From NCBI RefSeq assembly GCF_003991155.1, contig NZ_CP031293.1: DNA of 64,000 nucleotides, one strand, 5' to 3'. Below, one piece after another: positions 4,048 to 32,315 of the stretch; position 1 is the first letter of the stretch, and each line of letters starts with the position of its first letter. The position numbers and the translations under genes were made by a program. Under the pieces are notes generated by a model, which had not been told where the DNA came from, did not search any database, and saw nothing but the letters and a program-made list of their open reading frames with translations. Source of the stretch: Escherichia coli (GTDB taxonomy: Bacteria > Pseudomonadota > Gammaproteobacteria > Enterobacterales > Enterobacteriaceae).

Positions 4048-5130
4048 TTAACGTACCTTCAGCGTTGCCAGACCAATCAGGACCAGCATCAGCGAAATAA
4101 TCCAGAAACGTACAATGACGCGCGGTTCCGGCCAGCCTTTCAGTTCATAGTGGTGATGAATCGGTGCCATGCGGAAAATACGTTGTCCGCGCAGTTTAAA
4201 GGAGCCGACCTGCAGGATGACGGAAAGTGTTTCTACCACGAACACGCCCCCCATAATCACCAGCAGGAATTCCTGACGCAGCAGTACGGCGATAATACCT
4301 AACGCACCACCTAACGCCAGCGAACCGACATCGCCCATAAAGACCTGCGCCGGATAGGTGTTAAACCACAGGAAGCCCAGCCCTGCCCCGACTATCGCGG
4401 TACAGACAATGACCAGTTCCCCGGCGTGTCGTAGATACGGTATGTGTAAATAGCTGGCAAAGTTCATGTTGCCGGTCGCCCACGCCACCAGCGCAAAACC
4501 ACCGGCGACAAATACGGTCGGCATAATTGCCAGACCGTCAAGACCATCAGTCAGGTTTACCGCGTTGCCTGTACCCACAATGACGAAGTAAGCCAGCAGA
4601 ATGTAGAACAGCCCCAGTTGCGGCATCACATCTTTAAAGAACGGAACCACCAGCTGCGTTGCGGGCGTGTCTTTGCCGGCAAGGTACAGCGCGAAGGCAA
4701 CACCCAGCGCAATGACCGACATCCAGAAATACTTCCAACGAGCGATCAACCCTTTGGTGTCTTTACGCACCACTTTGCGATAGTCATCAACAAAGCCAAT
4801 GATGCCGTAGCCTACCAGCACCACCAGTACGCACCAGACGTACGGATTGGATGGATAAGCCCACAGCAGTACGGAGATCACAATCGCTGTCAGGATCATA
4901 ATCCCGCCCATGGTCGGCGTACCGCGCTTGCTGAAGTGTGATTCAGGACCGTCGTTACGCACCACCTGACCAAAGGAAAGTTTTTGCAAATGAGCAATCA
5001 TGCGCGGGCCCATCCACAATGAGATGAACAGCGCAGTCAGCAGGCTGACGATGGCGCGAAACGTCAGATAGGAAAAGACGTTAAAGCCGGAATAATATTT
5101 GACCAAATGTTCGGCCAGCCAAACTAACAT
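4048..5130 (-). CDS. mraY: MraY, phospho-N-acetylmuramoyl-pentapeptide transferase
   Basis: 360-aa polytopic membrane [22 protein letters not shown]; between murD and murF. Confidence 0.95.
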
Positions 5131-30107: not shown

Positions 30108-30959
30108 TCACGACCTGTGCGGATAATGAGGGTTTAAGAAAAGAAAAAGCGGTCTTTCAAAGGGAGATTCTGAAAACTTTATAGCTCCCGAACTTGATAA
30201 TGAACTATACAACTCATGATTTATTCTGTTTTTATCTTTATAATAATTAGTAATAGGTCTATTATTATATTGATTATATAACAATGTTGAAAAAGACTCA
30301 TCTAATGGCTTTATATAATTTAACCATTCTGGAAGCTTCTTTTTTATTAGTTGATTTTTTTTAAAAGGAGGATGGGTTGTAAATAAGAATGGCGTAAACT
30401 CAGTATTTTTAAAATTCCCTGGCGCTCCATATGTATCCCATATTTGTAAGGCTTTTGTGTAAGATAAAGGTTTTGCCAATAAAAGTGGATCGGGGCCTGT
30501 TCCAAATACACGATAAAAACCAATCAAGTCTGAGACTAAATCTTCTGCACTAAATCCGCTATCAGTATACCAGTTAAAAATAAATGAGTTTTGCCATGCT
30601 TCAAACCTCTTCGCAGTTCCATACATTAACGTTAAGGCAACTCTTGCTTTAAGAGTGGGTGAAAGACATGAACGAACCATAACCTTCGTATAAACACCGG
30701 TATGAAATGTAAGATCTACTCCTAATATTTTTTCCCGAATTCCCATTTCCTGATGATAATCAACAGGAAAATACCAATCATGAAATTCATCGTAATATGT
30801 TGAAAAATGTTCTTGCTCCAATTTTCTTTTTAATATTCTGGCATCTTGTCCCTGAGCATGCCCCAAATCGATCCAACCTAACTCTTCGGTATAAACTAAT
30901 CCATACTTTTTCGTTGTTGCAAATATTCCATCAGTAATATCGTTACGTTTGCTCATCAC
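30108..30959 (-). CDS. Hypothetical protein, 283 aa; candidate effector/toxin of a two-gene cassette, function unknown
   Basis: ORF with GAGGGGAG RBS upstream of a GTG-ATG start; single Cys; AT-rich codon usage unlike the flanking genes; absent from the K-12 araC-yabI interval. Confidence 0.6.
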   Translation of the reverse strand: MMSKRNDITDGIFATTKKYGLVYTEELGWIDLGHAQGQDARILKRKLEQEHFSTYYDEFHDWYFPVDYHQEMGIREKILGVDLTFHTGVYTKVMVRSCLSPTLKARVALTLMYGTAKRFEAWQNSFIFNWYTDSGFSAEDLVSDLIGFYRVFGTGPDPLLLAKPLSYTKALQIWDTYGAPGNFKNTEFTPFLFTTHPPFKKNQLIKKKLPEWLNYIKPLDESFSTLLYNQYNNRPITNYYKDKNRINHELYSSLSSSGAIKFSESPFERPLFLFLNPHYPHRS

Positions 30960-31432
30960 AATCTCCCCTCAAAAAAAACGTATAGCAAATAATATCAATA
31001 AGGAAAAATATTATTTTTCAATGTTTTTTTGTATACAATTCATTTTATGAATGAATTTACAAAGATAGCTGCGCCTGATACCGCTACACTTTTGCCAGAC
31101 CATGTTCTCCTCTGAGGGAGTAACTGGCGCTTTTCATAGAATGCCGTACTTTTTTCAACAACTGCCACATCGAACGGCATTTATGGTGGCGTGAAGTGCC
31201 TGCCATAACCGCTCAATGTGGTGTTCCTACGATGAACAAACCGCTTGATATATTCTCCTGATACAACCGGACAATATGTTCATGATGGGTATCCCGATAC
31301 ATAAGCCTTCGTTTTATTTTTACAAAAAGAAATCGTTGTCGATATTTTATCAAGAAAAAAATAATTCAGGTAAAACGATTCAACTAAAAATAACTAAAAT
31401 TAATCCCCCGTGAAATATATAAATAACGTCAG

Positions 31433-31469
31433 ATGAAGAAAGCAAGGGGGGCCCCCCCTTGCTTTCTTA
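31433..31469. repeat. Long perfect inverted repeat with G6/C7 core at the island-araC junction (terminator-like or recombination site)
   Basis: aagaaagcaagggggg | cccccccttgctttctt, arms of ~16 bp, abutting the new araC stop codon. Confidence 0.7.
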
Positions 31470-32315
31470 TTATTCACATCCAGCCCTAAACTCGCTCGGG
31501 CTGGCCCCGGTGCATTTTTTAAATACTCGCGAGAAATAGAGTTGATCGTCAAAACCAACATTGCGACCGACGGTGGCGATAGGCATCCGGGTGGTGCTCA
31601 AAAGCAGCTTCGCCTGACTAATGCGTTGGTCCTCGCGCCAGCTTAAGACGCTAATCCCTAACTGCTGGCGGAAAAGATGTGACAGACGCGACGGCGACAA
31701 GCAAACATGCTGTGCGACGCTGGCGATATCAAAATTGCTGTCTGCGAGATGATCGCTAATGTACTGACAAGCCTCGCGTACCCGATTATCCATCGGTGGG
31801 TGGAGCGACTCGTTAATCGCTTCCATGCGCCGCAGTAACAATTGCTCAAGCAGATTTATCGCCAGCAATTCCGAATAGCGCCCTTCCCCTTGCCCGGCGT
31901 TAATGATTTGCCCAAACAGGTCGCTGAAATGCGGCTGGTGCGCTTCATCCGGGCGAAAGAAACCCGTATTGGCAAATATTGACGGCCAGTTAAGCCATTC
32001 ATGCCAGTAGGCGCGCGGACGAAAGTAAACCCACTGGTGATACCATTCGCGAGCCTCCGGATGACGACCGTAGTGATGAATCTCTCCTGGCGGGAACAGC
32101 AAAATATCACCCGGTCGGCAGACAAATTCTCGTCCCTGATTTTTCACCACCCCCTGGCCGCGTATGGTGAGATTGAGAATATAACCCTTCATTCCCAGTG
32201 GTCGGTCGATAAAAAAATCGAGATAACCGTTGGCCTCAATCGGCGTTAAACCCGCCACCAGATGGGCGTTAAACGAGTATCCCGGCAGCAGGGGATCATT
32301 TTGCGCTTCAGCCAT
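31470..32315 (-). CDS. araC: AraC, arabinose operon regulator; C-terminally shortened allele (281 aa, ends ..SEFRAGCE*)
   Basis: Start at [15 protein letters not shown]; the last 11 residues of K-12 AraC are replaced by a stop at the insertion junction. Confidence 0.9.

Follow-up and report, generated by a model that had tools for sequence, protein, structure and literature searches.

The palindrome that immediately follows araC in the window, a 64-kb stretch of contig NZ_CP031293.1 from the E. coli assembly GCF_003991155.1, is a chromosomal single-copy hairpin that probably serves as a Rho-independent terminator or 3'-end hairpin of the araC transcript, and its perfect symmetry appears to be a derived trait.

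An inverted-repeat search identified two arms of 16 nt, at 31436-31451 (AAGAAAGCAAGGGGGG) and 31453-31468 (CCCCCCTTGCTTTCTT), that are 100% complementary and separated by a 1-nt gap, with the araC-proximal arm ending one base short of the araC stop codon (TAA, minus strand, 31470-31472). This confirmed what a first-pass annotation of this DNA had described (arms of about 16 nt ending 1 nt before the araC stop codon), although the span that it had given to the element, 31433-31469, was slightly too wide. A second in-frame araC TAA, at 31467-31469, overlaps the palindrome arm. The element is the longest perfect close-spaced inverted repeat within the 64 kb, where it occurs only once (the other match being its own reverse complement), and its pattern was found in none of 100 dinucleotide-preserving shuffles of the window; it is not explained by chance. 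RNA from either strand folds into a 15-bp stem with a 3-nt loop (plus strand: -27.7 kcal/mol, z -5.0; minus strand: -28.8 kcal/mol, z -4.3), and a 48-nt araC-sense segment containing the palindrome reached -25.6 kcal/mol (z -5.3). The elements of this hairpin, and those of a second symmetric terminator of the window, are the following:

31436-31468, both strands: perfect palindrome AAGAAAGCAAG6 / C7TTGCTTTCTT, 16-nt arms and a 1-nt centre
31442-31462, both strands: GC-rich core stem GCAAGGGGGG/CCCCCCCTTGC, 9 bp with a 3-nt loop as RNA, -16.3 kcal/mol
31427-31441, minus strand: U-rich tail UUUCUUCAUCUGACG of the araC-sense transcript
31463-31477, plus strand: U-rich tail UUUCUUAUUAUUCAC of the transcript antisense to araC
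17528-17557: second perfect symmetric terminator AAAAAACCCGCGC-CATT-GCGCGGGTTTTTT, 13-nt arms, tail score -4.22

Each 16-bp arm is made of an outer AAGAAA/UUUCUU part and of an inner GCAAG6/C7UUGC core of 9-10 bp. With 9 bp and a 3-nt loop, this GC-rich core falls within the range expected for Rho-independent terminators (a stem of ~5-14 bp and a loop of 3-8 nt), and the stem is followed by a U-rich tract on both strands: UUUCUUCAU in the araC sense (5/8 U; tail score -4.29) and UUUCUUAUU on the plus strand (6/8 U; tail score -4.58), when scored with a TransTermHP-style tail formula. The araC-sense U-tract is interrupted, and the first 6 nt of the corresponding tail can also pair with the A-tract. 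A consensus terminator scan flagged both strands at the palindrome. Considering this core and tail anatomy together with Term-seq surveys that found medians of 20-28 stem nucleotides and loops of 4 nt (PMC12207403), the element at the end of araC corresponds to a normal-sized, symmetric ("hypersymmetric") intrinsic terminator design. Calling it exceptionally long, or much above typical terminators in length and GC purity, was thus an overstatement: the core stem is ordinary when set against these medians, and the six outer pairs of the arms belong to the A-tract/U-tract. The terminator found at 17528-17557 has the same A-tract/GC-stem/U-tract organisation, perfect arms, a core of similar stability (-14.1 versus -16.3 kcal/mol) and a comparable tail score, but its arms are shorter (13 versus 16 nt) and it has a proper 4-nt loop.

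The A-tract AAGAAA mirrors the U-tract TTTCTT around the core, in line with the A-tract criterion for bidirectional terminators (PMC12207403), of which an upstream A-tract is a hallmark (PMC12207403; PMC4824070). With the hypersymmetric or bidirectional Rho-independent terminators of E. coli, examples of which are cited in PMC4824070 (Wright, Kumar & Hayward 1992; tonB-P14, Postle & Good 1985), the palindrome shares a GC-rich stem, a 3-nt loop, complementary A- and U-tracts, a sequence that reads identically on both strands and a location at the 3' end of a gene. It differs from them by its unusual G6/C7 homopolymer core, by a stem that starts only 1 nt past the stop codon, by the lack of a convergent gene and by the fact that termination is here a prediction. 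The palindrome does not serve convergent units: the PfkB remnant, the IS630 remnant, the 283-aa gene, the 140-aa gene and yabI are all encoded on the same (minus) strand as araC, and on the plus strand near the palindrome we detected only promoter-like consensus matches, at 31319-31365. Since its neighbours all share the araC strand, the relevant direction is most plausibly the araC sense, and the second, antisense direction is probably incidental given that no gene converges on the palindrome. The proposal that this element may be a bidirectional terminator insulating araC therefore holds for its two-strand anatomy and for its site, 3' of araC and upstream of island genes of the same strand, and less so for its second direction.

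If this reading is correct, the 9-10 bp core GCAAG6/C7UUGC would form behind the RNA polymerase, followed by UUUCUU, and the transcript would be released at the U-tract, keeping araC read-through away from the same-strand island genes. With its AAGAAA / TTTCTT flanks, the palindrome is the same on both strands, and antisense transcription coming from the AT-rich island could stop there too. One feature calls for caution on the efficiency of such a terminator: the stem lies directly 3' of the gene, 1 nt past the stop codon. In a tR2 reporter, terminator efficiency fell from ~90% to <10% when the stop codon, initially 28 bp upstream, was placed only 5 bp away, since a terminating ribosome blocks hairpin folding, and a stop-to-terminator spacing of >27 nt was needed for full efficiency (PMC4824070). 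For araC mRNA that is being translated, termination may therefore be inefficient or conditioned by translation and, by analogy with this reporter, may depend on how closely araC translation tracks transcription. If ribosomes indeed block co-transcriptional folding at such a short distance (PMC4824070), the hairpin may only stabilise the RNA 3' end, shielding the araC mRNA from 3'-to-5' exonucleases after Rho-dependent or more distal termination. The araC hairpins of Citrobacter and Salmonella described below, which have no U-tract, are in line with such a role, but the E. coli element has a U-rich tail on both strands and scores equal to the 17528-17557 terminator, and we consider a purely stabilising role distinctly unlikely. 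A literature search returned nothing usable on the araC-yabI island or on Term-seq or transcript 3' ends in strains carrying it, and it is from anatomy and position that we infer termination at this hairpin.

We then considered the locus in which the hairpin is embedded, which has the following organisation:

31470-32315, minus strand: araC, 281-aa form, stop TAA at 31470-31472
31473-31490: right copy (TTCACATCCAGCCCTAAA) of an imperfect direct repeat of araC codons 276-281, inside the live araC, identical to the left copy at 13/18 positions
31303-31435, minus strand: AT-rich spacer with homology to the DNA between araC and PfkB in the TTT/PfkB island of E. coli and K. spallanzanii
31265-31302, minus strand: remnant of an HTH-PfkB kinase gene, first ~13 codons, ATG at 31302-31300
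31084-31223, minus strand: fragment of an IS630-family transposase, annotated as a pseudogene in RefSeq
30108-30956, minus strand: cassette gene 1, 282/283 aa, matching no family or fold
29679-30101, minus strand: cassette gene 2, 140 aa, hydrophobic N-terminus
29646-29663: left copy (TTCACAATCGGCACAAAA) of the imperfect direct repeat of araC codons 276-281
29610-29663, minus strand: remnant of a K-12-type (292-aa) araC tail, codons ~276-292 and stop, 54 nt, beside yabI
28760-29524, minus strand: yabI (DedA family)

GC content drops from ~53-58% in the flanks to ~30-40% in the island. On the yabI side, K-12-like DNA runs through the 85-bp intergenic region and into the araC tail remnant; with this remnant at one end and the end of the live araC at the other, the island is bracketed by an imperfect araC direct repeat. 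On the araC side, the ~205 bp at 31265-31469, which comprise the hairpin and ~170 bp of additional DNA, are ~81% identical to the araC-PfkB intergenic region of a five-gene island that occupies the same site in other E. coli genomes. This homology identifies the hairpin as the araC-proximal end of an older module, to which, judging from the sequence, the two-gene cassette and the IS630 fragment were joined at about 31224-31265. The first-pass annotation had placed the palindrome at the cassette junction. Inserted DNA does begin there relative to K-12, but the hairpin belongs to the ~205-bp module of another island, and the true junction marks are instead the IS630/PfkB remnant (31084-31302) and the araC 3' end, duplicated at 29646-29663 and 31473-31490.

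The araC stop codon next to the palindrome had been regarded as new. Among 80 Enterobacteriaceae loci, AraC has 281 aa and ends with RAGCE-TAA in most genera, including Citrobacter, Salmonella, Klebsiella, Kluyvera, Raoultella and Kosakonia, while in the 292-aa AraC of K-12, E. albertii and some Citrobacter this TAA is changed to GAA, reading into EKVNDVAVKLS. The 281-aa stop is the majority position and probably the ancestral one in Enterobacteriaceae. Since the 281-aa form prevails, the stop codon of the window appears to lie at its ancestral position, with the 292-aa form representing a stop-loss extension. Two ~6.5-kb contigs labelled Photorhabdus namnaonensis (L010) and Xenorhabdus szentirmaii (L011) encode an AraC that is 100% identical to the query over residues 1-281, beyond which the 292-aa-type tail and the downstream sequence are those of K-12; these are probably contaminations by E. 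coli or by an araC vector.

The arrangement of the palindrome locus was found in 486 out of 5,426 complete E. coli chromosomes, and many chromosomes of wild E. coli from human, livestock, pet and wastewater sources match window positions 29400-31700 at 100% identity. Using a 43-nt probe centred on the palindrome, we detected exactly one locus per genome, always beside araC, the apparent second place in each genome corresponding to the self-complement of the palindrome. The same probe had no match in 72,556 plasmids, 50,697 phage records or IMG/VR, and an Rfam search gave only sub-threshold chance matches (27 bits versus a gathering score of 62). The idea that the same palindrome may recur at other cassette boundaries thus found no support in E. 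coli genomes, plasmids, phages or IMG/VR, where the araC locus was its only location. A recent or engineered origin had also been suggested, and we considered a construct scar or an assembly artefact; perfect GC-cored palindromes do serve as synthetic terminators, and errors are frequent in homopolymer runs. Nevertheless, dozens of independent wild isolates of human, animal and wastewater origin share the 2.3-kb region at 100% identity, 70 genomes have an identical palindrome and graded natural alleles of it exist, leaving this explanation with a negligible probability. Altogether, the natural distribution, the single locus and the negative plasmid, phage and Rfam searches exclude an engineered scar, a dispersed repeat and a recurrent boundary motif.

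Reading the hairpin base by base in six carrier loci revealed a series of alleles, among which the one-base homopolymer differences (G6C7 versus G7C7, C6 versus C7) could partly be long-read assembly errors:

G6C7, perfect (window): 70 genomes, -25.6 kcal/mol
G7C7, 34-nt perfect palindrome (LI60C3): at least 1 genome
AAGAAAGCAAG5-TT-C7TT-CTTTCTT, one bulged base and a TTCC loop: 402 genomes, -21.0 kcal/mol
C6 variant of the bulged allele: a few genomes, -23.6 kcal/mol (71-nt fold)
IS421 in the hairpin loop, with target duplication: 1 genome, CUVET21-PYO5

Carriers of the bulged G5TTC7 allele include Nissle 1917, APEC O1, 536, S88 and ATCC 25922. In CUVET21-PYO5, the IS421 element (IS4 family; L090, 2520-3875) lies exactly in the loop of a bulged allele and is flanked by a target duplication of ~12 bp (GGGGTTCCCCCC).

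Compared with the majority allele, the window allele has GG/G instead of TT in the loop and an additional G opposite the bulged C, each change adding complementarity. These 3-4 differences cluster at 31451-31461, while the adjacent 90 nt of island DNA have none. Since an araC-proximal arm lacking the extra G is common to the majority allele and to the outgroup formed by the TTT island, the additional G that faces the once-bulged C in the window allele is most simply seen as derived. On the basis of these alignments, the perfect palindrome is a minority, derived and recently evolved allele, the common allele being a quasi-palindrome. Quasi-palindromes are known to become perfect through template switching (PMC7202029), with hotspots such as those of Ripley 1982 and the thyA hotspot of Dutra & Lovett 2006, both as cited in PMC7202029, and a bias toward perfect inverted repeats exists genome-wide (PMC5941160). 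The pattern of changes seen here fits a quasi-palindrome template-switch mutation followed by a one-base homopolymer slippage. As at these hotspots, a bulge and non-complementary loop bases have been replaced by clustered changes that the opposite arm could template, but in our case the mutational route is deduced from alleles of natural populations rather than observed with a reporter, and G6C7 could only be reached with two or more template directions, or with one more slippage step. The series, which goes from weak to bulged to perfect hairpins, provides a clean natural example of inverted-repeat perfection, and it could be used to probe how stem perfection and stop-codon proximity tune araC read-through into foreign genes.

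The araC-yabI gap, which is only 85 bp in K-12 (with its 292-aa AraC), is a recurrent insertion point, and we compared the hairpins found after araC with its different occupants. At the empty site of K-12, there is no significant hairpin after the araC stop codon (z -0.9). The five-gene island, found in ~574 E. coli genomes (e.g. JJ2434 and GN04530; L003/L004, 683-6261) and also after araC in Klebsiella spallanzanii (L088, 3847-6300), encodes an HTH-PfkB kinase, a DHDPS-family protein and a tripartite tricarboxylate transporter (TctC/B/A-like). In E. coli carrying this island, the orthologous hairpin is weak (-8.7 kcal/mol, z -0.3), showing that a strong hairpin is not required in such genomes. 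In one E. coli genome (L008), most of the five-gene island has been lost through an IS1-mediated deletion. A fourth occupant of the site is found in the E. coli-labelled strain SCPM-O-B-8794 (L009, 3001-4908), where a gene encoding a fimbrial-subunit-like protein of 201 aa follows an araC that is ~10% divergent in DNA from that of the window; this locus has no significant hairpin past the araC stop codon (-2.5 kcal/mol, z +1.0). Three other loci have strong hairpins of their own:

Klebsiella spallanzanii, PfkB island, homologous spacer: different hairpin AGGUGCUGAG...CUCAGCACCU at the same place, -17.5 kcal/mol, z -4.7
Citrobacter freundii, two-gene cassette: a hairpin of its own, 12-15 nt past the stop codon of araC, -14.9 kcal/mol, z -4.1
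Salmonella enterica, two-gene cassette: a hairpin of its own, 12-15 nt past the stop codon of araC, -19.1 kcal/mol, z -4.1

The Citrobacter and Salmonella cassettes encode proteins with ~70% aa identity to those of the window and do not have the IS630/PfkB remnant. Since a hairpin recurs at the same position after araC with unrelated sequences, these comparisons argue for a structural role. They also bear on the possibility that the palindrome is a neutral by-product, with no selected role and a symmetry that only reflects a mutational bias perfecting imperfect inverted repeats. The perfect allele is indeed in the minority (70/486), the weak version of the TTT class persists in ~574 genomes, one genome tolerates IS421 in the hairpin loop and a preferential correction of imperfect inverted repeats has been documented (PMC5941160). 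Nevertheless, strong hairpins of unrelated sequence are found after araC in four independent island contexts and are absent from empty sites, and symmetry correction alone leaves the U-tract and A-tract flanks unexplained; we find a purely neutral origin unlikely.

A last possibility was that the palindrome is a DNA-level recombination or integration site (att-like, attC-like, or an IS or MITE end) marking the entry of the cassette. It does lie at the edge of the DNA that is inserted relative to K-12, several different islands all start right after the araC stop codon and IS421 entered the loop once. When the window was compared with three B2-type carriers (28760-32315 versus L005-L007), divergence was ~0.6% in the island, ~3.8% in araC and ~4.4% in yabI, switching at the hairpin and at the start of yabI. 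Because of this lower divergence, the island most likely moved between E. coli lineages more recently than its flanks diverged. The inter-lineage SNP density thus steps from ~0.6% to ~4% right at the hairpin, yet the hairpin is neither repeated nor associated with a recombinase. It has a single copy per genome and is absent from plasmids and phages, the island encodes neither an integrase nor a Y1 transposase, and the sequence shows no integron core sites (GTTRRRY/RYYYAAC). The hairpin differs in other carriers of this two-gene cassette, and what is repeated on the two sides of the cassette is the 3' end of araC, not the palindrome. We thus regard a recombination site, which had been put forward initially, as very unlikely.

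Several specific element classes were also rejected: REP/BIME or another dispersed palindrome, by its one place per genome in 486 genomes and by the Rfam result; IS or MITE terminal inverted repeats, by arms that abut (1-nt spacer) and by the single copy; an IS630 end, by the location of the IS630 fragment, which is 213 bp away, internal and truncated; an integron attC site, by the lack of either core motif at 31425-31480 and of an integrase among the annotated neighbours; an IS200/IS605-type hairpin target, by the lack of core motifs and of a cognate enzyme and by the single copy; an island att site, by the nature of the flanking direct repeat and by the lack of a recombinase; and an operator for the HTH-PfkB regulator, by the different stem of K. 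spallanzanii and by the deletion of the regulator gene in the window.

With a 3'-end hairpin of araC as the preferred reading, a probable araC terminator can be assigned in ~9% of E. coli genomes, among them Nissle 1917-type and APEC/UPEC strains, whose allele is the imperfect one. The direct value of this assignment is small; it corrects three misreadings of the locus, namely an engineered origin, a recombination site and a new stop codon.

More unusual than the hairpin itself are the recurrent insertions at the araC stop codon and the conserved orphan two-gene cassette, a pair with no recognisable family or fold. The two-gene cassette, the PfkB/DHDPS/TctABC island and the fimbrial-type island, although unrelated, all begin within a few bases of GAATAA, and most bring their own hairpin. 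A direct repeat of the last araC codons lies on either side of the two-gene cassette in E. coli, Citrobacter and Salmonella: the Citrobacter repeat is a perfect 16 nt (CGCTGGATGTGAATAA; L091, 3318-3333 and 4808-4823), the Salmonella copy is degraded (L094, about 4812-4826) and the distal E. coli copy is the 292-aa-type araC tail remnant. Site-directed insertion and homology-assisted illegitimate recombination are both candidate origins for this repeat. The araC stop codon could even be a cross-genus landing point for an undescribed, trans-acting system of site-directed cassette insertion or exchange, whose recognised target would include the gene-end hairpin, but this is a long shot, and plain homologous replacement between conserved flanks is an alternative. 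In Trabulsiella, the same two-gene cassette is located at the other edge of the ara cluster, between araD and polB.
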